Virus genome (UHGV): UHGV-0474209
DNA: 41,825 nt
Direction: 5' to 3' (one strand)
Source of the DNA: a virus
Shown piece after piece: positions 631-24,276 of the stretch. Positions within the stretch are counted from its first letter, which is position 1. Every line of letters begins with the position of its first letter. Position numbers and translations under genes: made by a program. Below the pieces are notes generated by a model. It saw only the letters and a list, made by a program, of their open reading frames with translations. It made no database searches and was not told the origin of the DNA.

Positions 631-645
631 CAAGGAGGAAATACC

Positions 646-1906: not shown

Positions 1907-1909
1907 ATC

Positions 1910-2791: not shown

Positions 2792-2799
2792 AAGCTCGT

Positions 2800-6567: not shown

Positions 6568-6579
6568 GGAGATGAGCTA

Positions 6580-6939: not shown

Positions 6940-6950
6940 GTGAATACTGA

Positions 6951-9571: not shown

Positions 9572-9724
9572 ATGAATAAGGATGGTTTTGAAGTAAATGC
9601 GGAAAGCGTTATTGATCAATTATTAAAAAGACTGTCTCAAGTAGAGTTGGAAAATGCTTCACTAAAAGTAGCTCTTGATCAGGTTTCGGTTAATAAACAA
9701 AACGTTACAAAAGAAGGTGAGTAA
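9572..9724 (+). CDS. small coiled-coil protein (50 aa), XkdX-like position
   Basis: ATG overlapping stop of upstream gene, stop abuts next ATG; MNKDGFEVNAESVIDQLLKRLSQVELENASLKVALDQ... ; small proteins of this type sit between tail fibre genes in Firmicutes phages. Confidence 0.35.
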   Translation: MNKDGFEVNAESVIDQLLKRLSQVELENASLKVALDQVSVNKQNVTKEGE

Positions 9725-10759
9725 ATGGCTTATGAAAAGCAAAATTGGATTTCGTATGATGACAATAAAACAGAAGAGCAAAATATTCAGGACGGTGCGG
9801 TTGTTACTGCCGAAAGAATGAATCATTTGGAGACAGGGTTAGACGAACACGATAAAAATACTACTAATCCGCACAAGGTAAATAAAGATCAGGTTGGCTT
9901 AGGTAATGTAACAAATGTGGAGCAAGCTAGTAAAACGGAGTTTAATTCTCACACATCGAATAAAACTAATCCACATGGCGTTACTAAAACACAAGTGGGG
10001 CTAGGAAACGTATCAAATGTGGAGCAAGCCAGTAAAACGGAGTTCAATAGTCATGTTGCTGATAAAACGAATCCGCATTCCGTAACGAAGGCTCAAGTTA
10101 ACCTCGGTAACGTCGACAACTACGCTACTGCCAATCAGACTGATGCGGAACAGGGGCTTGCAGGAAATAAATTTATTACGCCAATGGGTGTAAAGCAGCA
10201 TGTAGATAAGCGTATAGCGACGCAGGAAGAAGTAAACGCAGGGGAAGCAAGGGATAAAATTGTTAGTCCTAAGACGCTTGATAAAAAGTTAGATGATTTA
10301 AATGTATCAGGTGGTTTTGGTGCATTTAACATGAGTGTTTTCAATGGGGAGCAAGGACAAATAACTGGTAGTGGAATTCATGGGAAAGAGGTCAAATCAG
10401 GAACTCAAGTGCTACACATGCGGCCAGATGACCCAGTGGCAGAGAGAGCGTCCAATGGTCGGATTAAAATCCAAAAAGCTGGTACGTATTTATTTATCAT
10501 TCACACGTGGTATCAAATAGGCACACAAACAAATGGTTACCTGTATTTCAATTTGTTAAAGAATGGCTCTCGTGCCGGCAACAATGATCGAGTGACTGGT
10601 CAAGGGGTAGATGCACTCAAGAATAGATGGGACGGCACAGGGCAGTGTGTAAACACAGCGAATGCAGGAGATGAGTTTTCTGTAGGTATTGAAACCAATA
10701 TTACCGGCAGTTTCACGAATGTTGGCACAAAAACTATTACAGTTATCAAATTAGCATAG
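9725..10759 (+). CDS. tail fiber protein with phage-tail-fibre repeats (NPHxVTKxQVGLGNVxN x3)
   Basis: Three tandem 39-aa repeats matching the phage tail fibre repeat motif; distal C-terminal domain. Confidence 0.6.
   Translation: MAYEKQNWISYDDNKTEEQNIQDGAVVTAERMNHLETGLDEHDKNTTNPHKVNKDQVGLGNVTNVEQASKTEFNSHTSNKTNPHGVTKTQVGLGNVSNVEQASKTEFNSHVADKTNPHSVTKAQVNLGNVDNYATANQTDAEQGLAGNKFITPMGVKQHVDKRIATQEEVNAGEARDKIVSPKTLDKKLDDLNVSGGFGAFNMSVFNGEQGQITGSGIHGKEVKSGTQVLHMRPDDPVAERASNGRIKIQKAGTYLFIIHTWYQIGTQTNGYLYFNLLKNGSRAGNNDRVTGQGVDALKNRWDGTGQCVNTANAGDEFSVGIETNITGSFTNVGTKTITVIKLA
9866..10160 (+). repeat. tandem direct repeats, 117 nt x2 plus partial third copy, inside tail fiber gene
   Basis: Near-identical DNA copies ...aatgtggagcaagc(t/c)agtaaaacggagtt(t/c)aat... 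Confidence 0.7.
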
Positions 10760-10776
10760 ATAAATAAGCAACGATT

Positions 10777-10802
10777 TAGCACACTTTCGAGTGTGCTTTT
10801 TC
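10777..10802 (+). terminator. rho-independent terminator after tail fiber gene
   Basis: AGCACAC-TTTCG-AGTGTGCT stem followed by TTTTTC. Confidence 0.5.
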
Positions 10803-10829
10803 AATTATTGAAAAGAAGGCGGAAGGCAT

Positions 10830-11168
10830 GTGTTAGAAAAATTTCTGGAAATTAACAGTTTCTTGATGGCAATTGGATTAGGGGGATTCTTAAAGATTTT
10901 CCACAATATTTATAAAGCGGTCAAGGGAAATAAGGATCAAACGGAAAATAGATTCAAACGTTTGGAATATGCGAATGTAGCCATTCTGCATGACAAAATT
11001 TATAAGCAATGCTCCGAATTTTTGGAGCAGGGTTGGATTTCTATAGATGATCTCGAAAACTTAGAGTATTTATGGCGTGGTTATCGGGAACTTGGCGGTA
11101 ACGGAACTGGCGAAACACTGTATAAAAAAGTGTTGGATTTGCCGAATAAACTAAAGGAGGAAAACTAA
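10830..11168 (+). CDS. membrane protein upstream of holin (112 aa, N-terminal TM; GTG start)
   Basis: ORF with one N-terminal hydrophobic helix; position in lysis cassette. Confidence 0.4.
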   Translation: MLEKFLEINSFLMAIGLGGFLKIFHNIYKAVKGNKDQTENRFKRLEYANVAILHDKIYKQCSEFLEQGWISIDDLENLEYLWRGYRELGGNGTGETLYKKVLDLPNKLKEEN

Positions 11169-11170
11169 TT

Positions 11171-11440
11171 ATGGATTTATCATTTATCACAGAAAATTTC
11201 GTACCAGTGATTGTGGTGGCGTGTTTAATTGTGGGGCATGTAATTAAGGTGACGCCACTATTCAATAAAGTAGCGAATGCTTATATCCCTTTGATTGTAG
11301 CAGCGTTAGGAGCGATTCTGGGCGGTGTCATGACCGGCGTAGGCGTTGAGTCAATCGTTTATGGAGCGGTGAGTGGTCTAGCTTCTACAGGCTTGCATCA
11401 AATGTTTTCGAAATTATTGAATTTAGGAGGAAATGAATAG
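11171..11440 (+). CDS. holin (89 aa, phage_holin_1-like, two-three TM helices)
   Basis: Small hydrophobic protein MDLSFITENFVPVIVVACLIVG..., charged C-terminus, immediately upstream of endolysin. Confidence 0.7.
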   Translation: MDLSFITENFVPVIVVACLIVGHVIKVTPLFNKVANAYIPLIVAALGAILGGVMTGVGVESIVYGAVSGLASTGLHQMFSKLLNLGGNE

Positions 11441-11557
11441 CATGGATATGAAAAAAGCGAAAGAAGCATATGAAAAGTCGAATGATAAAAATGTTGGTTT
11501 GCAACCTCAACCAAAAGAAATTGAAAATATCAAAGAAGAAAAAGAGGAGAAAAAATA

Positions 11558-12571
11558 ATGGCTATTAATATCGAAACTGGTTTAGCTGTCGTTCAAAAAT
11601 TTGTAAATAATTGCTACTACAGCATGTATGGTTCTCGTTATTACACAGATGGTACATGTGACTGTTCAGGCTCTGTTTATCGTATTTTACGTGAATCTGG
11701 TGGTTTTAACTATGGATATATTCCTAACACTGAAACGCTACATGACTATCTTCTAAAGCTAGGGTATGAAAAGATCGCAGAAAATACAGACTTTCCAATG
11801 CAACGCGGCGATGTAATTATTTGGGGGAAAAAGGGTTACTCTGCAGGGGCAGGCGGTCATACAGGCGTAGCACTAGATAATCAAAACTGGATTGAATGCA
11901 CTGGTTGGAAAATGACTACGATCATTGCTAATCACGATCAACGATGGGTGATGGCCGGATGTCCTTATTTTTATGCGTACCGTTTAAAAACTGGAGCATC
12001 TAGCTCAACATCGTCGAATACAGCGACAACAACACCTGCAACTGGAAATAAAAACGGTATCGCGATTGACAACGTGTCGAAAGATCAAGCGGTTAAAATG
12101 GTGCAACGCATTCAAACACGATATGCATGGACTTTATTGCGCGATCAAGTAAAACGAGTGTTGCAGCCGAATAAAGTATATACACTAATTATTGCATGTG
12201 ATAGCAAATGGAAATATGAACATGCCATCAACCGCTTGAAACAAGAGCTAAAGACATATTTACCTGGTTACATTCAAGATAATATCGCTGTTCCTGATGG
12301 TGACAAGCCAATCATTCATATTGAAGCTCGCAATTTGACGGATGCGCAAAGCAAAAAGATGGAAGATCATATGCGCAACTTCCTGAAAGATGTATTGTTG
12401 GATAAACAAACGTATGCAGAAGCTAATAGTTATGGTACTTGGGATGTGCGCGTAAGAGGTGAAGGCTTTAACGATCATGACGCGCCAATTGTGTTGAAGG
12501 AGATTCAAGAAATGGGTAAAGCAAATGACGTGAAGATTGACCCGAGCCATATTAAAGGATTCAAGTATTAA
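11558..12571 (+). CDS. endolysin, Amidase_5 (Pal-like N-acetylmuramoyl-L-alanine amidase) catalytic domain plus C-terminal cell-wall-binding domain
   Basis: N-terminal 150 aa resembles pneumococcal phage Dp-1 Pal amidase (DCSGSVY, SAGAGGHTG, ERWVMAGCPYFYAYRL). Confidence 0.8.
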   Translation: MAINIETGLAVVQKFVNNCYYSMYGSRYYTDGTCDCSGSVYRILRESGGFNYGYIPNTETLHDYLLKLGYEKIAENTDFPMQRGDVIIWGKKGYSAGAGGHTGVALDNQNWIECTGWKMTTIIANHDQRWVMAGCPYFYAYRLKTGASSSTSSNTATTTPATGNKNGIAIDNVSKDQAVKMVQRIQTRYAWTLLRDQVKRVLQPNKVYTLIIACDSKWKYEHAINRLKQELKTYLPGYIQDNIAVPDGDKPIIHIEARNLTDAQSKKMEDHMRNFLKDVLLDKQTYAEANSYGTWDVRVRGEGFNDHDAPIVLKEIQEMGKANDVKIDPSHIKGFKY

Positions 12572-12643
12572 AAAATATTGACCCCGATGGAGTGTGTATG
12601 ATAGTTTTATAGTATCGAAGGTAGCACCTCGATATACCGTAAT

Positions 12644-12685
12644 GACTGACCGATACTAGCTTCTCGGTCAGTCTTTTCATTTTTG
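12644..12685 (+). terminator. strong rho-independent terminator after lysis cassette
   Basis: Perfect 10-bp stem GACTGACCGA/TCGGTCAGTC, 10-nt loop, then TTTTCATTTTT. Confidence 0.65.
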
Positions 12686-12725
12686 AAGCTAAATAGTTGC
12701 TCTAAAACTAGTATACGAATACTAT

Positions 12726-12793
12726 CTAAATAGGGATTCCTGATACAGTATCATTGATAGTAATTTAAGAGACTGTGGGGAAGTTCAGGAATC
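12726..12793. repeat. perfect 13-bp inverted repeat TAGGGATTCCTGA ... TCAGGAATCCCTA with 42-nt spacer
   Basis: Seen directly; lies between lysis terminator and tRNA. Confidence 0.5.
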
Positions 12794-12842
12794 CCTAGTT
12801 TATATTCTAACGCTTTGTATGCGTTTGCACAAATAATTCCTT

Positions 12843-12916
12843 GTACCTTTAGCTCAGTTGGTCAGAGCAGACGGCTCATAACCGTCCGGTCGTAGGTTCG
12901 AGTCCTATGGGGTACA
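12843..12916 (+). tRNA. tRNA with CAU anticodon (Met or, more likely, lysidine-type Ile2-like)
   Basis: Cloverleaf: acceptor GTACCTT/GGGGTAC, D-arm GCTC AGTTGGTCA GAGC, anticodon stem GACGG/CCGTC with loop CTCATAA, T-arm GTAGG TTCGAGT CCTAT; G1-C72 pair argues against initiator; no encoded CCA. Confidence 0.8.
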
Positions 12917-13039
12917 TAATATTGTCAATTTATAAAAAACGAAAACGTTTTTTTGTATGCGATGTGCTTTTCTTTTGATATACGAAATTATTAGGAGTAA
13001 TATGGGGTTAAATGAACTATTATTTAGGGGGAATAACTT

Positions 13040-14014
13040 ATGTGTACGTCCATCACTTATGTTACAAATGATCATTATTTTGGAAGGAATTTTGATTATG
13101 AAATATCTTACAATGAAGTAGTCACTGTTACTCCAAGAAATTATAAATTAGTTTTTCGAAAGGTAAATAATTTGGATAAGCATTATGCAATGATTGGTAT
13201 TGCCGCAGGTATAAGTGACTATCCTCTTTATTATGATGGTACCAATGAAAAGGGTTTGAGTATGGCTGGATTAAATTTTTCTGGGTATGCTGATTATAAA
13301 GAAATACAAGAAGGAAAAGATAATGTATCTCCTTTTGAATTTATTCCTTGGATTTTAGGACAATGTGCAACAGTAGATGAAGCTAAAGATTTATTAATGA
13401 ATATCAATTTAGCAAACATCAATTATAGTGAAGAACTTCCACTATCTCCTTTACACTGGCTATTAGCTGATAAAGAAAAGTCTATTGTGATAGAAAGTAT
13501 GAAAGATGGGCTTCATATATATGATAATCCTGTAGGAGTCCTTACAAATAACCCTTCATTTGATTATCAATTATTTAATTTAAACAATTATCGTGTATTG
13601 TCGAGTGAAACACCTAATAATAATTTTTCAGATCAAATTAGTTTGAACGCTTATAGTCGTGGGATGGGAGGAATAGGTTTGCCTGGAGATTTATCTTCTG
13701 TTTCTCGTTTTGTTAAAGCGACATTTACTAAACTAAACTCATTATCAGGAGATTCAGAATCAGAAAGTATTAGCCAGTTTTTCCATATCTTAGGTTCAGT
13801 AGAACAACAAAAAGGTTTATGTGATGTTGGTGACGGAAAATACGAATATACTATTTATTCTTCTTGTTGTAATGTAGATAAAGGAATTTATTATTATCGT
13901 ACGTATGAAGATAGTCAAATCACAGCCATAGATATGAATAAAGAAGATTTAAATGGTGAGGAATTAATTAGATATCCGATAATGAAAAAACAACAAATAA
14001 AATATGCTAATTAA
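13040..14014 (+). CDS. bsh: choloylglycine hydrolase / bile salt hydrolase (Ntn-hydrolase, N-terminal Cys2 nucleophile)
   Basis: MCTSITY... start; strong resemblance along whole length to Lactobacillus/Enterococcus BSH (YEISYNEVVTVTPRNY, NPVGVLTNNPSFDYQLFNLNNYR, YSRGMGGIGLPGDLSS, QFFHILGSVEQQKGLCDVGDGKYEYTIYSSCCN). Confidence 0.85.
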   Translation: MCTSITYVTNDHYFGRNFDYEISYNEVVTVTPRNYKLVFRKVNNLDKHYAMIGIAAGISDYPLYYDGTNEKGLSMAGLNFSGYADYKEIQEGKDNVSPFEFIPWILGQCATVDEAKDLLMNINLANINYSEELPLSPLHWLLADKEKSIVIESMKDGLHIYDNPVGVLTNNPSFDYQLFNLNNYRVLSSETPNNNFSDQISLNAYSRGMGGIGLPGDLSSVSRFVKATFTKLNSLSGDSESESISQFFHILGSVEQQKGLCDVGDGKYEYTIYSSCCNVDKGIYYYRTYEDSQITAIDMNKEDLNGEELIRYPIMKKQQIKYAN

Positions 14015-14148
14015 TTATTTGGGTATTTTTATTAAAAAGCCGAGAATACTTGTGACTTCAGTCTTGAGAGGTTCAATAAAATGTACTATTAACTAATTAA
14101 TTGTAAAAGCTGATGAATCATTTCCTCAATATTTTTACACCCTTAAAC

Positions 14149-14178
14149 AACGGAGCTCCTCTGGGAGCTTCTTTTTTA
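14149..14178 (+). terminator. rho-independent terminator after bsh
   Basis: GGAGCTCC-TCTG-GGAGCT(TC) hairpin followed by TTTTTT. Confidence 0.5.
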
Positions 14179-14180
14179 CA

Positions 14181-14465
14181 CTATGATTTTCCCGCGATTA
14201 ACACGGTAGCTATATATTGCGATCTTTCGATTATTCCAGCAGAATTTCTGCTTATTCTTATGAAGAAGCAAAATAGAGAATAGGTTTTAATGCTCATTGG
14301 AGCCTTTCTGTTCTGGCGAAAAAATATTAGGTTTCCTTCGTCATCAGGCTTAGCAGTAGTCAGTGGAATAAGGGTACTGCCCATTTGTGTATATATTTCC
14401 TTTGTATTCCTCATGAAAAGGATTCGCAGTTAATCGTTGCAGTAATTCGTCTGCTTTCATTTCAT
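14181..14465 (-). pseudogene. possible decayed gene remnant on minus strand (34-aa N-terminal frame MKADELLQRLTANPFHEEYKGN... then 77-aa ORF in another frame)
   Basis: Two short overlapping minus-strand frames, no convincing RBS; sits between two terminators. Confidence 0.25.
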
Positions 14466-14625
14466 ACCTTCTTCCGTTAAAATCTACTTGATTCAAATTC
14501 TAGCATGATACTTGTCTTGCCGACAACTGAATATCTTCTTACAATATCAGTTCCTGATTTTTAAACACGATTTAATTATAGTATGCAGGCTTATATTAAA
14601 ATTTAATTATAAATAAACAATGTTA

Positions 14626-14654
14626 TTGAGAAACAATAGATAAAACGTTAATAT
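14626..14654 (+). promoter_or_regulatory. sigma-A-type promoter TTGAGA-17-TAATAT for coiled-coil protein gene
   Basis: Hexamers at 14626-14631 and 14649-14654 with 17-nt spacer in AT-rich leader; AAAGGAG RBS before ATG 14703. Confidence 0.45.
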
Positions 14655-14702
14655 ATAAAAGTTGCAATGTCGCTTTTATATATGAAAGGAGAAAATTGAA
14701 TA

Positions 14703-15389
14703 ATGAAAAGGAAAAAATATGTAGTCGTAACACTCATCATTGTAATAGCTTTTATTGGTTTAGCCGGTAAAAATTATGCAGACAGTATTTTAAACTGGGG
14801 TGGGGAACAGAATATTTCTACCATCAATGATAACTTAGATAAGTTGAATGATTCATTATCAGATAAAGAACAGAAAATCATACAATTATCCAATAAATCA
14901 GCAAGTACAGAGGGCCAATTAACTCAATTTCAAAAAGATATTGATAGTTACAAGCAACAGTTAGAAGCTTTGAAAAATGAAAAAAATCAATTAGCTGGAG
15001 AAAAAACTAGTTTAGAATCTCAATTAAATAGTAAAAATGGAGAACTTCAATCTAAACAGCAAGAAATCGCAGATAAATTAAAGGAAATTGAGCAGAAAAA
15101 CCAAGAGATCAATCAGAAAAACCAAGAATTTAATACTAAATTGCAGGATGCACAAAATAAAGCTAATGATTTACAAAATACCATTAATTCACTAAATAAC
15201 CAGATTAACACTTTAAACAGTGAAAAAAATTCTTTGCAAGCAGAACTGGATTCTACTAAACAACAATTAGCAAGTGCAAACAAAGAAAATTCTAATTTAA
15301 AAGCTTATATTGATAAATTAAACAAGGCTAAACAAGATGTAAAAGATACAGCTAACAAGTCTCAACAAATAGTTGATCAACATCAATAA
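14703..15389 (+). CDS. membrane-anchored (N-terminal signal/anchor) extracellular coiled-coil protein, 228 aa, Q/N/K-rich heptads; lysogenic-conversion/exclusion candidate
   Basis: KRKK + hydrophobic helix then ~190 aa of coiled-coil with repeated NQKNQE/LQ motifs; own promoter and terminators. Confidence 0.6.
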   Translation: MKRKKYVVVTLIIVIAFIGLAGKNYADSILNWGGEQNISTINDNLDKLNDSLSDKEQKIIQLSNKSASTEGQLTQFQKDIDSYKQQLEALKNEKNQLAGEKTSLESQLNSKNGELQSKQQEIADKLKEIEQKNQEINQKNQEFNTKLQDAQNKANDLQNTINSLNNQINTLNSEKNSLQAELDSTKQQLASANKENSNLKAYIDKLNKAKQDVKDTANKSQQIVDQHQ

Positions 15390-15496
15390 AAGAGAAAAGA
15401 TTTCTAGCCCACGATAAGTTATTTTCCCATTGCACATGAAACCGTTTCATTGTATACTATTCATATCCTAAAAACATTTTTTTCATTACTTCAGAA

Positions 15497-15530
15497 CGCT
15501 CGAACGACCGGGCGTTCTATTTTTTTGAGT
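15497..15530 (+). terminator. terminator-like hairpin GAACGC...GCGTTC + T-run (first of two similar modules)
   Basis: Hairpin followed by TATTTTTTT. Confidence 0.4.
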
Positions 15531-15610
15531 AAATCTATCTTGTCAAATGTAACCGCTCGCTGTATACTTTAGTCACCAACAACCCTAAAACACTTTTTCA
15601 TAATCCTTGG

Positions 15611-15650
15611 AGCCCTGGAATAATCGGGAGCTCCTTTTTTTTATTGTTTT
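15611..15650 (+). terminator. terminator-like hairpin GGAGCCC...GGGAGCTCC + T9 (second module)
   Basis: Hairpin followed by TTTTTTTTT. Confidence 0.5.
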
Positions 15651-15678
15651 ATGTTGGTAAATTAAAAAGCCCGAAAAA

Positions 15679-15933
15679 TCAGGCTTTTACCATATCAAAT
15701 TCCATCATAATTTTTGTTTTTCCGATCACAGCGTACTTTTTTACAATGAATTGTTTTCTCTTATTATAATCGCCAGCCACTACAACATTCATGCCATCTT
15801 CTACGTCAGCTAGAAAATTCAAAGAGTGACCAGCAATCAAGCAACTAACATCATCTAACTTAAAGAAGACAAGGGGACATTCCGACATCTTTAAAATTTT
15901 AATTTTGATAACTGTTCCTGTTATTGACTGCAT
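15679..15933 (-). CDS. hypothetical protein (84 aa) adjacent to attP region
   Basis: Minus-strand ORF ending at a hairpin AAAGCC-N10-GGCTTT (15664-15690). Confidence 0.4.
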   Translation of the reverse strand: MQSITGTVIKIKILKMSECPLVFFKLDDVSCLIAGHSLNFLADVEDGMNVVVAGDYNKRKQFIVKKYAVIGKTKIMMEFDMVKA

Positions 15934-16044
15934 GCGATCACTCTATTCTAAATTGATAAACTTATTATACGAATGTACGTTCGTATTTTCGAGCGAACAA
16001 AAGATTAAGAATGAAAGGGGCAGAAAAGGGGCAAAAAATCCTAA

Positions 16045-16068
16045 CTAGTTCGTTCTAGCTCGTTTTTT
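16045..16068. repeat. direct repeat copy 1, AAAGGGGCAGAAAAGGGGCAAAAA (2x AAAGGGGCA), putative integrase arm-type site / attP region
   Basis: Identical 24-mer recurs at 16229-16252; immediately 3' of int gene. Confidence 0.5.
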
Positions 16069-16228
16069 ATCGTAATTTAATCGTTGTTAAACGTTGATTT
16101 CAAGCGTTTTTTGACCAGTTTGAACAAGCGGTAAAACAGCCATAATAAAAGATGCTGTAAAATAGTATCGACATTAAACCTGTTGGGGCTGTAAGGCTCT
16201 AGCAGGTTTTTGTTTTGATGCAAGGTTA

Positions 16229-16252
16229 AAAGGGGCAGAAAAGGGGCAAAAA
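16229..16252. repeat. direct repeat copy 2, AAAGGGGCAGAAAAGGGGCAAAAA
   Basis: Identical to 16045-16068. Confidence 0.5.
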
Positions 16253-16264
16253 TAAAAAGAATGG

Positions 16265-17413
16265 CTATAAACCATTCTCTTCTAATTGACTGATTAAATC
16301 AGTTTTCATTTTATCAGTAATGTGAGTATAGATTTTATTTGTAACGTCGGCATCCTCATGGCCTACTCGATCCATAATAGCCTTCAAAGGAGTATTTTGT
16401 TCGGCTAGTAATGACACGTGGGTATGTCTTAGTATGTGAGAGGTTAAACGCTTGTTAATTCCACTTTTTTTACCTGCAGCAGCAAAAGAACGATTGAATG
16501 AACTATTTTGCATAGGCGTACCTGTTCGGGTCACAAAAACGAATCCATCATTATTAAAATCAGATTCGGATAACAGGTCTAGTTTATTTTCCTCAAAAGT
16601 ACGTTTTACTAGCTCAACCGTCCGTTGGGTCAATTGAACATCTCTATTTGATTTCTGGGTCTTAGTTGGTCCTATCGCTTTTTGTTTGTAACCTTTGCTG
16701 TAGTCGATTGTACCTCTAATGTGAACGATATTATTATCCAAGTCAAAATTTCCTTCTCTTAATGCGACTGCTTCGCCAAAGCGAACTCCTGTTAAATACA
16801 TAAATTCAGCTAATCGACCGACACGAAAGGTTGACCGACTTTTATAAAGTTGATCTAGGATCAATTTTACTTCATTTTTTTCAAGGTACTTATCCTCAAT
16901 ACGTTCTATATCTTCTAGGGTTTTCGCTTTAGGGATAATCTCTACGTTTTCAACAGGGTTTTTATAAGCGTAGCCGAGTTTAATCGCATATTTAAATACT
17001 AAGTTAAGATTCGACTTGATATGGGCGATATAAGTCTGAGAATAGTCGAGAGAGGCAAAGAAGTTTTGCAACAATCTTGTATCAATATTTGAAATCAGAA
17101 TGTCTTCGTTTATATTCTTGAAAATAATTTTTCGAATGGCTACATACGTGTTCTTTGAGTTAGGTCTCAAAGATTTAAAATAATTATTTTCCCATTCAGT
17201 ATAAACTTGCTGGAAGGGGACTTTCTCGATTTTCTTTTTAGCCAGTTCATTTTCTATTTTATCATTCAGGATACTTAGCGCTTTATTCCATGCTTGTTTT
17301 GATTGGCTATTTAGTACCACTGATTTTTTCCGAGTCTTTTCAGTATACGGGTCTTTGTAGCGTTCAATAAACTTGAAACGCCCATCTTTCAATGGTTCTA
17401 CCCACATTGTCAT
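16265..17413 (-). CDS. int: tyrosine integrase (phage integrase family)
   Basis: C-terminal catalytic region ...LTSHILRHTHVSLLAEQNTPLKAIMDRVGHEDADVTNKIYTHIT (R..H..R..Y), N-terminal SAM-like domain. Confidence 0.9.
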   Translation of the reverse strand: MTMWVEPLKDGRFKFIERYKDPYTEKTRKKSVVLNSQSKQAWNKALSILNDKIENELAKKKIEKVPFQQVYTEWENNYFKSLRPNSKNTYVAIRKIIFKNINEDILISNIDTRLLQNFFASLDYSQTYIAHIKSNLNLVFKYAIKLGYAYKNPVENVEIIPKAKTLEDIERIEDKYLEKNEVKLILDQLYKSRSTFRVGRLAEFMYLTGVRFGEAVALREGNFDLDNNIVHIRGTIDYSKGYKQKAIGPTKTQKSNRDVQLTQRTVELVKRTFEENKLDLLSESDFNNDGFVFVTRTGTPMQNSSFNRSFAAAGKKSGINKRLTSHILRHTHVSLLAEQNTPLKAIMDRVGHEDADVTNKIYTHITDKMKTDLISQLEENGL

Positions 17414-17517
17414 TTCCTCCTATCATTTGGTATAATAGGCACAACAAAAGAAGCCTATGCCTATAGGCGCTTTATTTTTGCACGATCATACTCTTGCCGG
17501 GGCGGGATCGTGTTTTT

Positions 17518-18324
17518 TTAATCCTTCTTTATTTCATCTTCTAACGACTCTATTTTTTTCATCAATAAATCCATTTTTTTGTGTAAACTTTCGATTTCAT
17601 CGTCTTTAGTATCCTTGCCTGCATTGAAATATTCAGTGATTGTGGAAGTGAGCATACCTATAAAACCAATCCCTAGAAACATTAATAGAATAGCAGCTAT
17701 ACGTCCTAATGGTGTATTTGGAGATATATCGCCATACCCAACAGTTGTAGTTGTAACTACGGCCCACCAAATTGAGTCGACAAAAGCGACACTTTCTGCT
17801 ATAGAATACATAGTGGCTGAAATCAGTATCAGAACCACACTGACATACAAAGCATTTCTAAAATTATTAGTTTTAAGAAAACCATCTATCCTATTAGTCA
17901 ATTTTCCGGTAATCCCAACTAGTCTACTAAGTTTAAATAGTCTTGTTACCCTTGCTATCCGAAAAACTCGTGCAAGCCTGAAGAATGAAAAAATAGAGTT
18001 GAAGGGAATAATTGCAATAAGATCAAACATGTTTTTCAAGAAAAACTGTTTTTTATTTTCAGCCTTAATTAGTCTCGAAAAATAATCATAAGCAAATACT
18101 ATTAATATAGCGGAGTCTATTGTTTTAAATGGATTTTTCGAAATGCTGATGATGTTAGAAAAATCCAGTACTACTAAGACAATCGAAAAAACAGCTAACA
18201 CAATGATAGTAAAATCATAGATATTCTTTTTTGTAAATCTCAAATAGATCACCCTATTCTGATATAATATCAATATTTCATCAATCTTAGTAATAGGGTT
18301 GAGTTGAAGTCCGTGTGCCAGCAC
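17518..18324 (-). CDS. voltage-gated K+ channel homolog (6TM Kv-type: S1-S4 voltage sensor, pore TTVGYGD, S6, C-terminal coiled-coil)
   Basis: S4 RLARVFRIARVTRLFKLSRL with basic residue every third position; selectivity filter TVGYGD; six hydrophobic helices; true start probably internal (GTG ~18252 or TTG ~18243 with AGGGTGA RBS) since the 18324 codon is CTG. Confidence 0.8.
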   Translation of the reverse strand: MLAHGLQLNPITKIDEILILYQNRVIYLRFTKKNIYDFTIIVLAVFSIVLVVLDFSNIISISKNPFKTIDSAILIVFAYDYFSRLIKAENKKQFFLKNMFDLIAIIPFNSIFSFFRLARVFRIARVTRLFKLSRLVGITGKLTNRIDGFLKTNNFRNALYVSVVLILISATMYSIAESVAFVDSIWWAVVTTTTVGYGDISPNTPLGRIAAILLMFLGIGFIGMLTSTITEYFNAGKDTKDDEIESLHKKMDLLMKKIESLEDEIKKD

Positions 18325-18332
18325 GGGCTTTT

Positions 18333-18737
18333 TTATCCTAAATTTCTCATTGATTCACGTACATATCTTTCTAAACTCCAAGGAATTTTATAATACTCCA
18401 TGAATTTAACAGCATTTAGTTGTTCTTTATCAAAATCGTATTCGTTAGACCAAATAAATAATAGTATCTCTATAGCAATTCGATTGGCTTCAAATTCTAA
18501 CTTTCGCCGACTATATCCAGTAGCATTATAATATGCAGATAATTCTTCATGTTTTTTGATACAGTGAGCTAGTTCGTGAGATACTTCAAAGTCAGAATTT
18601 TCATTAAGGAGCTCATTGTTTAAAAAAATCGTTTTCTCCTCAGCAAAATAAAAACCACTTCTTTTCATATCTACAAAGCACAGTTCTAAACCCAAATTCT
18701 CTACGAGGTTCAATAAGTGATTATTAATTTCATGCAT
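18333..18737 (-). CDS. ImmA/IrrE-family zinc metallopeptidase (anti-repressor protease)
   Basis: HEXXH motif SHELAHCIKKHE; immediately downstream of XRE repressor as in ImmR-ImmA pairs. Confidence 0.8.
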   Translation of the reverse strand: MHEINNHLLNLVENLGLELCFVDMKRSGFYFAEEKTIFLNNELLNENSDFEVSHELAHCIKKHEELSAYYNATGYSRRKLEFEANRIAIEILLFIWSNEYDFDKEQLNAVKFMEYYKIPWSLERYVRESMRNLG

Positions 18738-18757
18738 AAATTATTAATCACTTCACT

Positions 18758-19069
18758 TTATTTGTTTTCCGCAGCCCGCTTTGCAGCTAATACAGATTTT
18801 AAAAACTCTACTTCTTCATCCGAAACAGGTTCGCCATCGAATGCAAATACACCATGCTTTTCTGCTAAAGAAGTCTTTTCTTCGCGTCCTAACAAATAGT
18901 CGACGGAGACTCCAAAATAGTCAGCTAGACGGGGCAATTCATCAGCGTTAGGAGTGTTTGTTTTCCATTTGGCTAAATATCCATTTGAATAGCCGAATCT
19001 CATTTCTAACTGCCTTATAGAAATCTTCTTTTTCTTGGCAAGCTCTTTTATGATTTCATAAGTATTCAT
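18758..19069 (-). CDS. XRE-family HTH repressor (CI/ImmR-like)
   Basis: N-terminal HTH ISIRQLEMRFGYSNGYLAKWK; divergent from cro-like gene. Confidence 0.8.
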   Translation of the reverse strand: MNTYEIIKELAKKKKISIRQLEMRFGYSNGYLAKWKTNTPNADELPRLADYFGVSVDYLLGREEKTSLAEKHGVFAFDGEPVSDEEVEFLKSVLAAKRAAENK

Positions 19070-19164
19070 TGATTTTGCAACCTTTCTGAATGCTCACAAA
19101 AAAAGTTTAGAAAAATACGCAGAATAAACTTGAAAAATTCTGAATGATAGTCTATACTTATTTT

Positions 19165-19178
19165 TGTAAACAAGTTCG
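19165..19178. promoter_or_regulatory. candidate operator site TGTAAACAAGTTCG (copy A) in cI-cro intergenic region
   Basis: Exact reverse-complement copy at 19327-19340; overlaps putative -35 of repressor promoter. Confidence 0.4.
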
Positions 19179-19326
19179 TTAATAAAAAAGACAACAAAAA
19201 ATAAAACTGATTAAAGTAAGCTGACCGGCAAGAAAGCTATAAATCAATATTTTATGTCTTATTTAACTATGCCTCTAGTATAGAGTAATACTCAGCACAA
19301 GTCAATATAGTTTAAAAAATAGTTTT

Positions 19327-19340
19327 CGAACTTGTTTACA
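19327..19340. promoter_or_regulatory. candidate operator site CGAACTTGTTTACA (copy B, inverted)
   Basis: Reverse complement of 19165-19178, 27 nt upstream of cro-like ATG. Confidence 0.4.
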
Positions 19341-19366
19341 TTTCAACATAGAAAGGAGCAGCGTAG

Positions 19367-19549
19367 ATGGCTAATGCACAGGAGACAAGACAAAAAATAT
19401 TGGATCATTTCAAAGCGAATGGTTGGAGCATACCAGATGTTGCTAGCGCTTTGAATATTACTGAGCAGTACCTACGAAAAATATTGAACAATCCAGAAGA
19501 CCATTGGAAGCAGATCACGGATATCATATCACGATACAAAATCAGATAG
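19367..19549 (+). CDS. Cro-like small HTH regulator (60 aa)
   Basis: HTH WSIPDVASALNITEQYLRKIL; first gene of rightward early operon; AAAGGAG RBS. Confidence 0.6.
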   Translation: MANAQETRQKILDHFKANGWSIPDVASALNITEQYLRKILNNPEDHWKQITDIISRYKIR

Positions 19550-19561
19550 GAGGTTGAAATC

Positions 19562-19864
19562 ATGAAGAAGCCGACGTTAGCAGAGTTAATCGAATCCGCA
19601 GAAAAGAATATGAAACCAGACGACTGGTATCGTCAGGGCTTAATCCTAAAAATGTTTCACGGGATGTCGAAGACAACTCTCGTTGAGTACTGCAAAGAGA
19701 TGGAAGCCATCGACGAATTCAAAGAAGGAATTCTCAGGCCAGGACATTCAACAACTTTCATTCATGTCCATACGTTCATTTGGTTTTTACGATGGAAAGA
19801 TGAGAACAAATACAGAACTAAAAAAGTAACGCCTAAAGAAATTTTGAAGGAGGCGACAGCATGA
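19562..19864 (+). CDS. hypothetical early protein (100 aa), possible DNA-binding/excisionase-like
   Basis: ORF with AGGAGG RBS. Confidence 0.4.
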   Translation: MKKPTLAELIESAEKNMKPDDWYRQGLILKMFHGMSKTTLVEYCKEMEAIDEFKEGILRPGHSTTFIHVHTFIWFLRWKDENKYRTKKVTPKEILKEATA

Positions 19865-20139
19865 ATGATGATAAATCAAAAGAGACCGGAAATATATTCG
19901 AAGGTTTGAGCTTCAAATATCCGCCAGTCTCAAAAGAAGAATATGAACAAGCTTATGAAGAATATGTTAAGCGTTGTTCAGATCAACAAATCAAAATTCA
20001 TAAAGGAAATTCAAAATGCGGAAGCAATGTTGAGGTGAAAAACACAATCGAGGCAAAAAGAATCGTGACAGAACTGATTGATAAAGAAACAGTTTCAATC
20101 ACGATTAATCAAAAAAATGGGATAAAGTGCAACCTGTGA
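19861..20139 (+). CDS. hypothetical protein (92 aa)
   Basis: ORF, overlapping start/stop ATGA with upstream gene. Confidence 0.35.
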   Translation: MNDDKSKETGNIFEGLSFKYPPVSKEEYEQAYEEYVKRCSDQQIKIHKGNSKCGSNVEVKNTIEAKRIVTELIDKETVSITINQKNGIKCNL

Positions 20140-20278
20140 CAGCTAACGGCGATAAATTTTCTGACGTAAATAATTGCTATCACTAGCATCAAATAGGCCT
20201 TCGTAGTTCGAGGTCAAACCGCCGATAAACAGTCGATCTTGCCTAGTAATTACTTGGAAAATCAGAGGAGGTTAAAAA

Positions 20279-21196
20279 TTGAATGAAGTAAAAAATTTGT
20301 TCGACTATTCAATAGTGGATGATCGGACTGCTAGCTTTCTCAAAGTTAAAGAGCAGGAAATGAGGACAATCGTTTTGAATGGTTCGATTCAACTTGGTGA
20401 CAAACTGATCGAGGCGCAAGAAAAATTAGCAAAATACAATTCTGGCACATTCGAGAAGTGGTTTTCGTCAATCGGGTTAAAAAAACAAACAGTTTACAAC
20501 TACATTAATCAAGCGAAATTCGTCCATCAAATGGACGAATCAGAACAAATCAATATATTCCAAGAACTTCCGATGACCTTGAGAACAGAAGTTTCTAAAC
20601 CTTCAGCTCAACCTGAAGCAGTCGAGTTAGTTCTATCTGGCGATATAAAAACCACAAAGGAATATCGTGAATTAGAAAAGCAACTAAAAAAGAAAGATGA
20701 ACAAATCGATAACCTTTCAGAAGTGATCAATGACATGAGTGTTCAACAACCAAGAGTCATTGAAAAGGAAGTGGTTGTTGAAAAAGTTCCGGATGATTAC
20801 GAAAATTTGAAACAATCCTATTCACAATTAGAAGAACGAAGTTCGCAACTAGAATCAAACTATAGAGATTTGTTAGCCGAACGAAAAGAAGTGGATGAGA
20901 AATCGTCTAAGTATGAACAACTATCAAAGGCGATCAACCAAGCCGAAGACAAACTGAGTGAAACCCAGCGACTTATTTCCAACTACAAGAATCTATCAGA
21001 TGTATTAGAAAAATCGAATGAGTTATTGTCAGAGGCGAGCGCTCTAATCTATCAGGATTTGTCAGAAGTAATCAGTCGGGATGGACTTGCAAAAAGAGAG
21101 CTAGACTTTCTAACCGAAAGGTTGGAGAAATTTTTATCAGACTTAAAATTAATCAGCAAAAACAACATATTGGAAGGAGAGGTTATCAATGAGTAA
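20279..21196 (+). CDS. hypothetical early protein with N-terminal globular domain and long acidic coiled-coil (305 aa, TTG start)
   Basis: ORF with AGAGGAGG RBS. Confidence 0.45.
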   Translation: MNEVKNLFDYSIVDDRTASFLKVKEQEMRTIVLNGSIQLGDKLIEAQEKLAKYNSGTFEKWFSSIGLKKQTVYNYINQAKFVHQMDESEQINIFQELPMTLRTEVSKPSAQPEAVELVLSGDIKTTKEYRELEKQLKKKDEQIDNLSEVINDMSVQQPRVIEKEVVVEKVPDDYENLKQSYSQLEERSSQLESNYRDLLAERKEVDEKSSKYEQLSKAINQAEDKLSETQRLISNYKNLSDVLEKSNELLSEASALIYQDLSEVISRDGLAKRELDFLTERLEKFLSDLKLISKNNILEGEVINE

Positions 21197-21662
21197 TCAG
21201 CTATTAGAACTAGAGAAAACCCTAGAAAATCAATTAGTTTTGGTGAAAGAAATGCGCCTAATCAAGAGCGACGTTTCTAAGATGAAGGAGGAAATTACGA
21301 AGGATGTTCAAGAATTGCGAGATAGTATCACATTGAACCGTCACGAAGGAGCAGAAATTCAGTCAGCAGTTGGGAAGAAAGCATGGGATTTAGCAAAAGA
21401 ATACTTCGATCATAAAGTGTCAGATGATTTGTTTTTGGATAAAGTTGGGCACTTCCGCGGAATCATCTACAAGCGATTAAAAGAAACTTTTAATGTACCG
21501 AGATACTATGATATTCGCCGCATTGATTTTACTAGGTCAAAACAAGTTATAGAAATCGTGTCATTAAGCAACTTAAAAGACTACCAATTGCGATTAACAG
21601 CACGGCAAAAAGAAATAGCTTACTTGAATGCTGATAATGTTGATGGATTAGAGATTGTTTAA
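21189..21662 (+). CDS. hypothetical protein (157 aa), ORF6C/antirepressor-C-terminal-like
   Basis: ORF overlapping upstream stop; weak family resemblance. Confidence 0.4.
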   Translation: MSNQLLELEKTLENQLVLVKEMRLIKSDVSKMKEEITKDVQELRDSITLNRHEGAEIQSAVGKKAWDLAKEYFDHKVSDDLFLDKVGHFRGIIYKRLKETFNVPRYYDIRRIDFTRSKQVIEIVSLSNLKDYQLRLTARQKEIAYLNADNVDGLEIV

Positions 21663-21676
21663 GTGGAGGGGAGAAA

Positions 21677-21829
21677 ATGAAACAAATCAACCTAGCTACA
21701 ACAATCATGTGCATGTTAGCTATCCCAGTTTTTTCAAAATTTAGTATGCTGGCAGCTTATGGATACATCGGAATCTTTCTCCTAGCGATCGGATGGGAAA
21801 AGAAAAAGCCAGCCGAGGGGGCTGACTAG
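21677..21829 (+). CDS. small membrane protein (50 aa, two hydrophobic helices)
   Basis: GGAGGGGAG RBS; MKQINLATTIMCMLAIPVFSKFSMLAAYGYIGIFLLAIGWEKKK. Confidence 0.3.
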   Translation: MKQINLATTIMCMLAIPVFSKFSMLAAYGYIGIFLLAIGWEKKKPAEGAD

Positions 21830-21831
21830 AG

Positions 21832-21987
21832 ATGGAAAATAAATATGTGGAAGAACTTAGGCAAGAAATAAAAAGATTAAAACTAGAAAATAAACAGTTA
21901 ATTTTGCTAAATCAAATACTTAATGATGCTACTAAAAAATATAGTGAGGCATTAAGAAACTTACTTAACTACTTATCTGAAGATTGA
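21832..21987 (+). CDS. small coiled-coil protein (51 aa)
   Basis: ORF; 3' end overlaps convergent minus-strand gene. Confidence 0.3.
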   Translation: MENKYVEELRQEIKRLKLENKQLILLNQILNDATKKYSEALRNLLNYLSED

Positions 21988-22685
21988 TTGAATTCAAGTG
22001 ATTCATCTACATCGAGATCTGCATCAATGATTTTGATAGAGGAATTTAGAAAACGTTTAAGATCTTGTAAATCGCGGTCTGTGTTTCTCCGCTCGTAATG
22101 AGTTTCATCGTTACCGAGATACGCAACTGACAAAGCTAAATTTTGTATTTTTGGATATTCATTCATATATTTTTGAATTACTTGCTTTAAAAACATTTTC
22201 TTAATTTTATCCTCATCGTTAGGATGTCTTTTGATAGCGTAATCCTTGTACAAAAATTCGGCAGCTTTTCGATAAGCGACTCCATCGATCTTATCTAATC
22301 CATGGTTTTCTGCAATAACTGATTGTTCATATATATTTGCGAATTCAGGAGACAGCTCAACAATATTTTGTGGGATATCAATATCTATTGGTGGATTATA
22401 AGAAAAACTCACTCGAGTCCATTTGTCTCCAATGTTTGTGTATTGGGAAACGAAATATTTTCTACAGTCAACAGCCATACATTTTAGAAGTACTCCTACA
22501 TTGGCCATATTCACATTTGAATCGGTAGTTATCGCGTTCAGAACTAAGGGAGCAGAGGTTTTTCCGCAATGTGGGCATCTATCAGGAATATCAACAGTAA
22601 TCTCTCCTGTGTATGCGTTAGAAGAACGGCCAGCAGGTCTAGCTTGAAAAGTAACTTTTATTGATTCTAACAATTTTTTCACCAT
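21969..22685 (-). CDS. counter-oriented protein with N-terminal CxxC...CxxC zinc ribbon and C-terminal DUF4145/HEPN-like domain (238 aa); defence/Abi candidate
   Basis: Minus-strand gene embedded in plus-strand early operon; CPHCG ... CMAVDC motifs; C-terminal helical domain. Confidence 0.55.
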   Translation of the reverse strand: MVKKLLESIKVTFQARPAGRSSNAYTGEITVDIPDRCPHCGKTSAPLVLNAITTDSNVNMANVGVLLKCMAVDCRKYFVSQYTNIGDKWTRVSFSYNPPIDIDIPQNIVELSPEFANIYEQSVIAENHGLDKIDGVAYRKAAEFLYKDYAIKRHPNDEDKIKKMFLKQVIQKYMNEYPKIQNLALSVAYLGNDETHYERRNTDRDLQDLKRFLNSSIKIIDADLDVDESLEFNQSSDK

Positions 22686-22727
22686 CCAGTTTTTAAACCA
22701 TTATATCAAATTGAAAGGGGTGAGTGG

Positions 22728-22871
22728 ATGAGTTATGAGGAACACATAAAGCTAATGGAAAAAGCAAATAGAGAATATTATAACTATCATGAGTCAATTT
22801 TGTTAGCAAAGCAAATTATCGAAAAACAAAAAAAAGCTCACTACGCCGGCAAGCAATTAGTGAGCAAATGA
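22728..22871 (+). CDS. small hypothetical protein (47 aa)
   Basis: ORF with GAAAGGGGTGAG RBS. Confidence 0.25.
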   Translation: MSYEEHIKLMEKANREYYNYHESILLAKQIIEKQKKAHYAGKQLVSK

Positions 22872-22899
22872 AAAAATATATTTCTAAGGAGAGAATAAC

Positions 22900-23229
22900 A
22901 TGATTAACGAAAAAATTCAAAATTTATTGAAAGAACTACAACGGGAATGTGAAAAGGAAGGTGTATCAGCACTTTGTACACTCCATAAAGAAGCGAATGC
23001 CTTACAACTGCTTGTTGGTGGATTACCCGATGTAGCTGCACTCTTAGCGATTCAAGAAAGTGAATTAGACAACAAGTTACTGGTTCCCGTGAAACTATTA
23101 AGGAATGCAGGATTAGAGGCATTGGGGATGGAAACGGGGAAAACTATGCCCGATCATACCTTTGTTCTTAATAATGTAAACGATATTCCAGATGTCCTTG
23201 AACGTATTAGGAAAGGTGAATTCGAATGA
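22900..23229 (+). CDS. hypothetical protein (109 aa)
   Basis: ORF with AAGGAGAG RBS. Confidence 0.4.
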   Translation: MINEKIQNLLKELQRECEKEGVSALCTLHKEANALQLLVGGLPDVAALLAIQESELDNKLLVPVKLLRNAGLEALGMETGKTMPDHTFVLNNVNDIPDVLERIRKGEFE

Positions 23230-23334
23230 GTTTCGATTATGACACTGCAATGGCTGATCCTGATAACCACGTTTTCATAAATGTTACTCAATCAGGGGCA
23301 GAAGATAAGCCAGAGAACATGGAGGGATGGGCTG

Positions 23335-24276
23335 ATGATTAGTTCAATAATGAAAATGGCTCGTATAGATTGGTTGTTAGACCGCAGAAAAGGAATAGGC
23401 GGTTCAGATGTAGCAGCCATTATGGGATTAAATAAATGGAAATCTGCCTATCAAATTTGGTTAGAAAAAACAGGACAGGTTGGATTATCTGAATCAGACA
23501 GCGAGCCAGCTTATTGGGGAACGGTTTTGGAAGAGGTTGTAGCAAAAGAATTCGCCGTGCGGACTGGAAAAAAAGTCCGTCGGCGTAATCAAGTATTTGA
23601 ACATCCAGAATATCCATTTCTTAGAGCGAATATTGATCGTGATGTAGTAGGAGAAAAAGCGATATTGGAGTGCAAAACAGCGAATCAATTTCTTAGCAAA
23701 GAATGGGATGGTGAGGAAGTCCCGCTTAGTTATCTGTGTCAAGTACAACATTATATGAATGTTCTTGATAGAGATTATTGCTATTTTGCTGTATTGATCG
23801 GTGGTCAAAAATTCATCTGGAAACGCATTGAACGAGATCAAGAATTGATTGACTCAATCACCAAACGCTTAATTGAATTTTGGGAAGAAAATGTAATTAA
23901 AGGCATAGAACCATCTATTGATGGCAGTGATGCCACTAAAAAATTCTTGAATGCTCATTATAACGAAGAAGGATTGAACGAAATTACTCTTTCAAATCAT
24001 TTTGATGAATTAATTGAAAGTAAAAAGCAACTAAAAGAAACTGAAAAATCAATCAAGATCCAAATACAAGAAATTGATAATCAAATTAAATCAGAGCTAG
24101 GGAAAAGGAATGCAGTAATAGGGATTTCTCCTAAACATGTCATCTCTTGGAAACAACAAAATAGAATGACATTAGACAAGAAACTATTGACTGAGAAATA
24201 CCCTGAAGTTGCAAATGATTCCAGCATATACAAAACATCAAGTTATAAAAAATTAGTTGAAAAGGAGATTGGCTAA
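23335..24276 (+). CDS. YqaJ-like viral recombinase-domain exonuclease (lambda Exo-like PD-(D/E)XK)
   Basis: GGSDVAAIMGLNKW...ECKT motif region; paired with downstream RecT; RBS GGAGGG before ATG 23335 (longer ORF from 23281 possible). Confidence 0.7.
   Translation: MISSIMKMARIDWLLDRRKGIGGSDVAAIMGLNKWKSAYQIWLEKTGQVGLSESDSEPAYWGTVLEEVVAKEFAVRTGKKVRRRNQVFEHPEYPFLRANIDRDVVGEKAILECKTANQFLSKEWDGEEVPLSYLCQVQHYMNVLDRDYCYFAVLIGGQKFIWKRIERDQELIDSITKRLIEFWEENVIKGIEPSIDGSDATKKFLNAHYNEEGLNEITLSNHFDELIESKKQLKETEKSIKIQIQEIDNQIKSELGKRNAVIGISPKHVISWKQQNRMTLDKKLLTEKYPEVANDSSIYKTSSYKKLVEKEIG

Follow-up and report, generated by a model that had tools for sequence, protein, structure and literature searches.

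This study concerns the virus genome UHGV-0474209, a stretch of 41,825 nucleotides (the window), and in particular a minus-strand gene at 17518..18243 that is predicted, from sequence and structural model, to encode a complete voltage-gated potassium channel with six transmembrane helices, of the same type as KvAP and KvLm and with all residues of sensor and filter intact. The gene lies in the lysogeny operon of a temperate phage. On the same strand, it is preceded by the gene for an ImmR-like repressor of the XRE/helix-turn-helix (HTH) type, the first gene of the operon (18758..19069; Pfam HTH_19, 1.5e-9, and HTH_3, 2.3e-8), and by the gene for an ImmA-like metalloprotease (18333..18737; Peptidase_M78, PF06114, 9.7e-9), and it is followed by the gene for a tyrosine integrase (16265..17413; Phage_integrase, 8.3e-31). 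A first-pass annotation, made from the letters of the window alone, had correctly placed the channel gene downstream of ImmR and ImmA and upstream of int, and this arrangement generalises well beyond the window: the channel gene holds a fixed place in the repressor operon of many temperate Firmicutes phages, as its first cargo gene.

The channel protein

The longest open reading frame at the locus reaches up to GTG 18324 (17518..18324), and its translation of 268 amino acids had initially been taken as the product. Since the homologues are about 240 residues long and their alignment begins at TTG 18243 of the window, which is preceded by the ribosome-binding site AGGGTGA, the product is most likely a protein of 241 residues that starts at this codon; the 268-residue version is merely the longest frame and was abandoned. 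An antisense frame (17579..18085, plus strand) was discarded as well: it has no Pfam match and lies opposite the strongly conserved channel coding sequence.

The assignment to the voltage-gated channels is supported at several levels. The Pfam profile Ion_trans (PF00520) matches residues 34-239 of the 268-residue frame with 60.9 bits (cut-off 25) and covers S1 to S6, and Ion_trans_2 scores 71.1 bits (cut-off 22.5). These are the only Pfam families that were matched by the protein, and Ltp (PF07553) is not among them. Since Ion_trans lies above its cut-off, the lack of any ion-channel match, which the first-pass annotation had named as one outcome that would speak against it, did not occur. The best sequence match in the PDB is the pore of KvLm (Lmo2059; 4h33, 1.8e-23), followed by full-length KvAP (6uwm, 2a0l and 1orq, about 1e-17) and then by Kv1.2, Shaker and Kv2.1. 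The S4 helix (17923..17979, minus strand) has the sequence RLARVFRIARVTRLFKLSRL and carries seven basic residues, R89, R92, R95, R98, R101, K104 and R107, one at every third position, where at least four had been set as the threshold. The selectivity filter TTVGYGD (17728..17748, minus strand; residues 166-172, TTTTVGYGD in context) is invariant across 104 aligned homologues; it and the regular S4 are both present as originally quoted. In S2 and S3 the residues D43, F50-x-x-D53 and D74 are invariant or nearly so in the same 104 proteins, and D43, D53, R57 and D74 align with D62, D72, R76 and E93 of KvAP in a HMMER alignment. We take the pattern of D43, F50, D53 and D74 to be the charge-transfer centre known from Kv1.2 (E226, F233, E236, D259).

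The C-terminus (17521..17604, minus strand; residues 214-241) is a heptad-repeat helix with a 3,4 spacing of isoleucine, leucine and methionine: I217, L220, M224, L227, I231, L234 and I238 follow each other at distances of 3, 4, 3, 4, 3 and 4. An AlphaFold run with 14 sequences had given a pLDDT of 70 with S4 unresolved; it was repeated with 104 sequences, which resulted in a pLDDT of 77 with a poorly resolved end of S4. In this model, S6 runs into one long C-terminal helix (178-240), in agreement with the coiled coil of the first-pass annotation, which probably serves tetramerisation. When the model was compared to the PDB with Foldseek, the top 50 matches were all Kv or KCNQ channels (with Kv1, Kv2, Kv4 and Shaker among the top), each with a probability of 1.0. 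The TM-scores are only 0.33-0.42 because the monomer model does not fix the geometry between sensor and pore. The description as a complete Kv-type channel with six helices is thus borne out by the Ion_trans profile, the PDB matches and the structure prediction, and by sequence and analogy the protein is most likely a tetrameric, potassium-selective channel that is activated by depolarisation.

KvAP of Aeropyrum pernix and KvLm of Listeria monocytogenes, which have been central to our understanding of voltage sensing, share with the phage protein the S1-S4 sensor, the S4-S5 linker, the S5-P-S6 pore and the TVGYGD motif. KvLm is the closest characterised relative, with an identity of only about 34-37%. 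Of eight conserved charges, KvLm has retained only three (PMC2585861), whereas the phage channel has seven basic residues in S4 and all counter-charges in S2 and S3. Unlike both of these proteins, the channel described here is phage-borne and encoded in a repressor operon.

Organisation of the immunity operon

The channel gene is separated from immA by 89 nt (18244..18332, minus strand). The first-pass annotation had described co-directional genes with a spacer of about 80 nt and no terminator; apart from the length, this holds, as sequence scans of the spacer found neither a canonical terminator on the strand of the channel nor a promoter-like site. The same was seen in the relatives described below: among 65 distinct prophage spacers, measured between the preceding gene on the same strand and the estimated start of the channel gene, the median length is 47 nt, 30 of the 65 are at most 40 nt long, and just one contains a sense-strand terminator. 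With the common strand, the short spacers and the lack of sense terminators or promoters, co-transcription of the channel with the repressor genes is the simplest reading, and in the window the channel would be the last gene of a maintenance transcript that starts with immR and immA. A candidate promoter for this transcript (TTGACT-17-TATACT, 10/12 in a consensus scan) is located upstream of immR at 19277..19305 (minus strand), and a cro-like gene with an HTH match (19367..19549, plus strand) is divergent from the repressor gene.

The spacer does contain a hairpin with a T-run at 18306..18331, which makes a canonical intrinsic terminator on the plus strand alone, opposite the channel gene (11-bp stem, z = -4.1); on the strand of the channel it is weak and mismatched. 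Antisense terminators are present in 13 of 31 distinct immA/immR-channel spacers of at least 70 nt, as compared to sense terminators in two of the 31, and their sequences differ between clades. Hairpins equivalent to the one in the window were observed in the spacers of the loci L099, L114-L126, L015, L028, L076, L161 and L162. A second, strong plus-strand terminator (17480..17519; 8-bp outer stem followed by U7) lies directly 3' of the channel stop codon, and a weak terminator-like hairpin on the minus strand (17453..17468; 6-bp stem followed by TTCTTTTGTT) is found between the channel and int. The opposite-strand terminators could shield the maintenance operon against transcription in the opposing direction, with the host HU gene at attL, late read-through across attP or an antisense promoter, such as the one at 17407..17436 described below, as possible sources. 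Alternatively, an antisense RNA could end at the spacer hairpin, or the hairpin could be an element of RNA processing or stability.

A match to an extended -10 promoter (TTGTCA-18-TGgTATAAT, 11/12) is present at 17407..17436 on the plus strand, where it overlaps the start codon of int on the opposite strand, with the strong plus-strand terminator less than about 80 nt further on. As judged from these signals, a small RNA could be made from 17407..17519 (plus strand) that would be antisense to the 3' untranslated region of the channel gene and to the int leader. An Rfam search over 15400-19600 (E <= 1) returned two chance-level matches only and assigned neither the hairpins nor the possible antisense RNA to a described family. 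In silico folding of the sense RNA (18244..18300, minus strand; z = -2.4) pairs the ribosome-binding site of the channel, AAUAGGGUGAU, with the upstream sequence ACCCUAUU; such a pairing would keep translation of the channel low.

Recurrence of the layout in other phages

A megablast search with window 14000-24000 against the phage collection gave no match, and a search at the protein level was required. Among the phage records searched with tblastn, full-length homologues of the channel were found only in temperate phages. In the Lactobacillus phage PLE2, the gene order is gp29 (HTH), gp28 (metalloprotease), gp27 ("ion transporter") and, further on, gp24 (integrase). The Lactobacillus phage JNU_P5 and Dulem virus 33 have the same order; in the former the channel gene overlaps the upstream gene by 4 nt, and in the latter there is a 4-nt overlap with the XRE gene. 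Moreover, the channel allele P0028 of Enterococcus faecalis (456 member sequences, 60% identity) is located in prophages with the order HTH_3 - Peptidase_M78 - Ion_trans - Phage_integrase at several chromosomal sites.

For a wider set of relatives, open reading frames were called in the fetched loci and labelled with hidden Markov models that had been iterated from ImmR, ImmA, Int and the channel of the window; the IMG/VR set comprises the best 80 of 157 relatives, and the set of GTDB species representatives the best 80 of 553, of which 75 have scorable channel reading frames. A repressor and/or ImmA gene is present directly upstream of the channel on the same strand in 75 of the 80 IMG/VR loci, usually with int 0-5 genes downstream. 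Nine GTDB loci have the layout repressor-(ImmA)-channel-(..)-int, and three more are near an integrase gene. The placement is the same in phages of Enterococcus, Lactobacillaceae, Lachnospiraceae and other Clostridia, and homologues are carried on plasmids of Lactobacillaceae, Planococcus and Staphylococcus as well. The first-pass annotation had asked whether homologues sit beside repressor genes elsewhere, and the IMG/VR loci, the three phages and E. faecalis all answer this in the affirmative.

Lineages and conservation of the channel

In a neighbour-joining tree, one clade of Lactobacillaceae proteins is purely chromosomal (18/18 "C" loci); its members (L034, L037, L067, L030 and others) have the motif YYxLFW and a shortened S4 with 4-6 basic residues, which recalls KvLm. 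A mixed clade holds most prophage copies from Lactobacillales, including that of the window, together with some chromosomal ones, and has 5-9 basic S4 residues, mostly at least seven. The Lactobacillales therefore appear in the tree with two Kv lineages, of which the phage-associated one (L095-L167) has the longer S4. The other prophage copies, mainly from Clostridia, fall into further mixed clades. We had considered that prophage copies are as such richer in S4 charges than chromosomal ones; this was rejected, as chromosomal members of the phage-associated clade also carry 7-9 S4 charges and the contrast is one between clades, not between contexts.

All seven basic S4 positions are kept in 59 of 69 distinct prophage copies, and the other ten keep six. 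In the same 69 copies the filter is essentially invariant, and the counter-charges in S2 and S3 are kept in 67-69. This conservation indicates purifying selection on voltage sensing. It also bears on the idea that illegitimate recombination brought a host channel gene into the lysogeny module, where it is carried along as a hitch-hiker, neutral or nearly so, with no selected function. An exchange of genes between hosts and phages is indeed implied by the interleaving of phage and chromosomal copies in the mixed clade; yet a hitch-hiker would hardly be expected to keep its filter and sensor residues, to recur at the same place in phages of hosts from Enterococcus to the Clostridia, or to persist under the strong size constraint on phage genomes, and we regard this explanation as very improbable.

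The slot between immA and int

Phages that lack the channel reveal what else is found at this position. In the Streptococcus thermophilus phage TP-J34, the genes follow each other as int, ltp, metalloprotease, repressor, and transcription of ltp occurs in the prophage (PMC3952083). The position of ltp is exactly that of the channel. In IMG/VR prophages with an ImmA that is 72-80% identical to that of the window, the place between immA and int is taken by genes of various kinds, for a lipoprotein that contains two Lipoprotein_Ltp domains (1.3e-35), for lipoproteins with DUF4352 or LysM, for a bPH_3-SHOCT protein or for a small zinc-ribbon protein, or it is empty. In those channel-bearing relatives in which int is not adjacent, 41 non-redundant proteins are encoded between the two genes. 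PADLOC identified AbiD in two of them, a ThsB-like TIR protein in one, and PDC-S25 (with weaker ThsA-like SIR2 matches), PDC-S19, PDC-S57 and PDC-S02 in one each; the Pfam matches include a SLATT protein, a PemK toxin and an NS_2 endonuclease. The channel occupies a slot that is otherwise used for exclusion or defence genes.

The comparison with the exclusion genes of the Ltp/Sie2009 type in phages of lactic acid bacteria is therefore one of position: the channel shares with them the slot and the strand (int - X - metalloprotease - repressor), and both kinds of product are located in the membrane and presumably expressed in the prophage. Ltp, a small lipoprotein of the cell surface, binds to the tape-measure protein on its way in. 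In sequence and fold, Ltp is unrelated to the channel, which is a six-transmembrane ion channel.

The proximity to the regulatory genes could also mean that the channel serves the cycle of the resident phage, either by coupling the energetic state of the host to maintenance or induction, or by conditioning the membrane: a release of potassium and turgor upon holin-induced depolarisation would tune the timing of lysis or keep out secondary infections while the lytic burst is under way. Across very distant phages, the gene is invariably linked to the switch genes, not to int, and in some of them the channel overlaps translationally with the repressor gene. Moreover, viral potassium channels of chloroviruses are linked to membrane depolarisation, infection and the exclusion of secondary infection. 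The chlorovirus channel Kcv, a minimal pore with two transmembrane helices and no voltage sensor that resides in the virion membrane and acts at entry, is a comparable case of a virus-encoded potassium channel with a canonical filter, although its virus is eukaryotic and the protein described here is a full six-transmembrane Kv channel from a prophage. On the other hand, the gene lies apart from the early and late lytic operons, on the lysogeny strand, the channel has no domain by which it could pass a signal on to ImmA or ImmR, and the close ImmA relatives with a lipoprotein or without the channel indicate that it is dispensable for the switch. A role in the phage's own cycle is thus quite unlikely.

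The phage genome and its other cargo

The nearest relatives of the window at the DNA level are prophages on megaplasmids of about 1 Mb in Enterococcus raffinosus, with channels that are 99.6% identical. In the integrated copy in plasmid pHG51, the homology runs from window position 16146 to 41825 and straight into 1 to 16164. Because this copy joins the window ends contiguously, the window represents the complete phage genome of about 41.8 kb in circularly permuted form, and the block int-channel-immA-immR is its left-end lysogeny module. The possibility that window 1-16000 is host DNA or a second prophage was discarded for the same reason: 1-16164 is the right arm of the phage. The attP core TAAAAGATGCTGTAAAATA (16146..16164) is defined by the points at which homology to the integrated copies stops, 16146 for the int-side arm and 16164 for the lysis-side arm. 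On either side of it lies an exact copy of a 23-nt direct repeat, AAAGGGGCAGAAAAGGGGCAAAA (16014..16036 and 16229..16251), and the two copies are candidates for arm-type sites of the integrase. The prophage is inserted at an HU gene, at its 3' end, both on the E. raffinosus megaplasmid and in metagenome contigs, and a plus-strand terminator at 16176..16209 would terminate the host HU gene after integration.

A gene for a bile salt hydrolase (13040..14014, plus strand; CBAH, 7.5e-113) is present between the endolysin gene (11558..12571) and attP. It has no PHROG match, and copies with about 80% DNA identity are annotated as bsh on E. faecalis plasmids; the enzyme is lysogenic-conversion cargo of the phage. 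Between this gene and attP are 14703..15389 (plus strand), which encodes a coiled-coil protein of 228 residues whose hydrophobic N-terminal segment is likely a signal peptide or membrane anchor, and 15679..15933 (minus strand), which encodes a protein of 84 residues; their PADLOC and Pfam matches are coiled-coil noise. A similar pair (230 and 108 residues) is found at the same end of the prophages L190 and L191, which carry unrelated cargo. Finally, a lysogeny-strand gene for a protein of 238 residues (21969..22685, minus strand) is embedded in the rightward early region. It belongs to phrog_1305 ("DNA binding protein", 2.6e-46), has no Pfam or PADLOC match, and is possibly another moron expressed in the lysogen.

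The bile salt hydrolase makes the phage a carrier of demonstrably gut-adaptive cargo, and the channel might likewise contribute to the fitness of the host: a voltage-gated potassium conductance would stabilise the membrane potential and the potassium balance under depolarising stress, for example by bile acids, organic acids or bacteriocins, to the benefit of host and prophage and without any effect on other phages. Basic electrophysiology agrees with this idea, since a depolarisation-activated potassium channel repolarises the membrane, and so do the chromosomal homologues in conserved synteny across Lactobacillales, the homologues on plasmids, and the strong conservation of the sensor residues, as expected of a finely tuned physiological channel. 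However, fitness cargo is typically carried at the other end of the genome, between lysis genes and attR, where a lysogenic-conversion module has been described (PMC3952083) and where the bile salt hydrolase gene of this phage is located, while the channel is in the ltp/sie slot amid defence genes. Moreover, the chromosomal Lactobacillaceae clade is separate and has a reduced S4, so that the phage-associated channels are not simply spare copies of host channels. We consider a host-fitness function rather unlikely, though a serious candidate.

Discussion

Our work describes a Kv channel in the lysogeny module of temperate phages. With due caution, and by analogy to known systems, we favour the idea that the channel is expressed in the lysogen and mediates superinfection exclusion or abortive infection triggered by voltage, although we rate its chances as somewhat below even. 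As long as the membrane potential has its normal, strongly negative value, the channel would be shut and harmless. A superinfecting phage that punctures the membrane to inject its DNA would cause a depolarising leak, upon which S4 would move and the pore would open; potassium would then leave the cell while the leak supplies the counter-current, and the loss of potassium and turgor would block DNA entry or the development of the phage. Because the leak carries the counter-current, even a small one could result in a sustained loss of potassium and turgor through the channel. For this scenario we infer the expression in lysogens, the polarity and voltage range of gating, and the anti-phage effect itself. 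The first-pass annotation had also considered that the channel dumps the proton motive force. This part had to be given up: the pore drives the membrane to the potassium equilibrium potential and can therefore not collapse the proton motive force alone, and sustained potassium loss needs a parallel depolarising leak.

A Rex-like function is plausible by position, since the slot of the channel behaves as a slot for exclusion or defence genes. In phage lambda, RexB is regarded as a non-selective ion channel with four transmembrane helices that alters the membrane potential upon superinfection, and RexA is the cytoplasmic sensor. Both rex genes are downstream of the repressor gene in the maintenance transcript, as is predicted for the channel. 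In contrast to the two proteins of the Rex system, the phage channel is the product of a single gene that combines a potassium-selective pore with a built-in voltage sensor, and no conserved RexA-like partner was found in the loci of the relatives that we examined: the channel follows immA or immR and is itself followed by int or variable cargo. Of the analogy to exclusion and abortive-infection genes drawn in the first-pass annotation, the part that concerns position is supported by the Ltp lipoprotein and by the AbiD, TIR and SIR2 cargo, but a RexA-like partner and a match in PADLOC are both missing.

Other anti-phage systems make use of channel proteins as well. The membrane protein of Gordonia phage CarolAnn is reportedly counted among the channel-type anti-phage effectors. 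In the Hailong-type system, a protein with an IRK potassium channel domain, encoded in a defence hotspot of mobile elements, has been suggested to act by membrane depolarisation, and it is paired with a nucleotidyltransferase-like or HEPN-like protein (PMC13586616). The operon described here contains no nucleotidyltransferase gene, its neighbours being HTH, M78 and integrase genes, and unlike in Hailong, the six-transmembrane Ion_trans architecture implies gating by voltage. Hailong, as described, and Rex both work with partner proteins, and none of the known channel-type effectors is known to have a voltage sensor. That a canonical Kv channel constitutes a stand-alone anti-phage system, with the membrane potential itself as the signal of infection, is an extension of the exclusion model, albeit a doubtful one.

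Several observations weigh against a function in exclusion. First, a potassium-selective pore that opens upon depolarisation tends to repolarise the cell rather than to kill it. Second, 63 of the 75 scored GTDB channel loci are in other contexts, some of them conserved across genera and many in Lactobacillales, such as the arrangement of a 710-residue protein gene, the channel and an opposite-strand gene for a 330-residue protein in Lentilactobacillus and Apilactobacillus; these conserved chromosomal contexts imply that the channel protein has a cellular role independent of phages. Third, the polarity of gating cannot be read from the sequence (PMC2151562). KvLm, which is potassium-selective and activated by depolarisation, has a half-activation voltage (V1/2) of +154 mV in spheroplast patches (PMC2151562), and since it opens in vitro only at such very positive voltages, opening in vivo is not assured. 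Fourth, the channel has no match among the PADLOC models. Fifth, it is constant as the first gene after the regulators while the defence genes downstream vary, and a core accessory function would fit this pattern equally well. Finally, the hairpin in the spacer could attenuate sense transcription even without a U-tract.

The protein family and the logic of the slot were already known. The channel belongs to phrog_7872 (2.9e-105), which is listed as "unknown function", and the homologues of PLE2 (gp27), JNU_P5 and Dulem virus 33 are labelled as ion transporters in GenBank. The statement of the first-pass annotation that Kv channels have not been described as cargo of phage immunity operons thus calls for a qualification, although in the open-access literature that we searched we came across no study in which a Kv channel of a lysogeny module is noted or tested, and the paper on PLE2 and strain BL23 does not mention the channel gene of this phage.

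To our knowledge, the in vivo function of prokaryotic voltage-gated potassium channels is essentially obscure. The clade with the full S4 is almost exclusively the first cargo of the repressor operon in temperate phages of Enterococcus, Lactobacillaceae and Clostridia, and the prophage channel provides a genetically tractable setting to ask what bacterial Kv channels do. Were the Kv channel indeed a stand-alone anti-phage system with voltage as its signal, a bacterial Kv channel would for the first time have a physiological role, and a class of defence widespread among temperate phages of the Firmicutes would be defined; as a defence gene, the channel would add voltage as a principle of sensing that is not present among the catalogued systems. 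If the channel is a fitness gene, phages would spread components of electrical excitability among gut and food bacteria.

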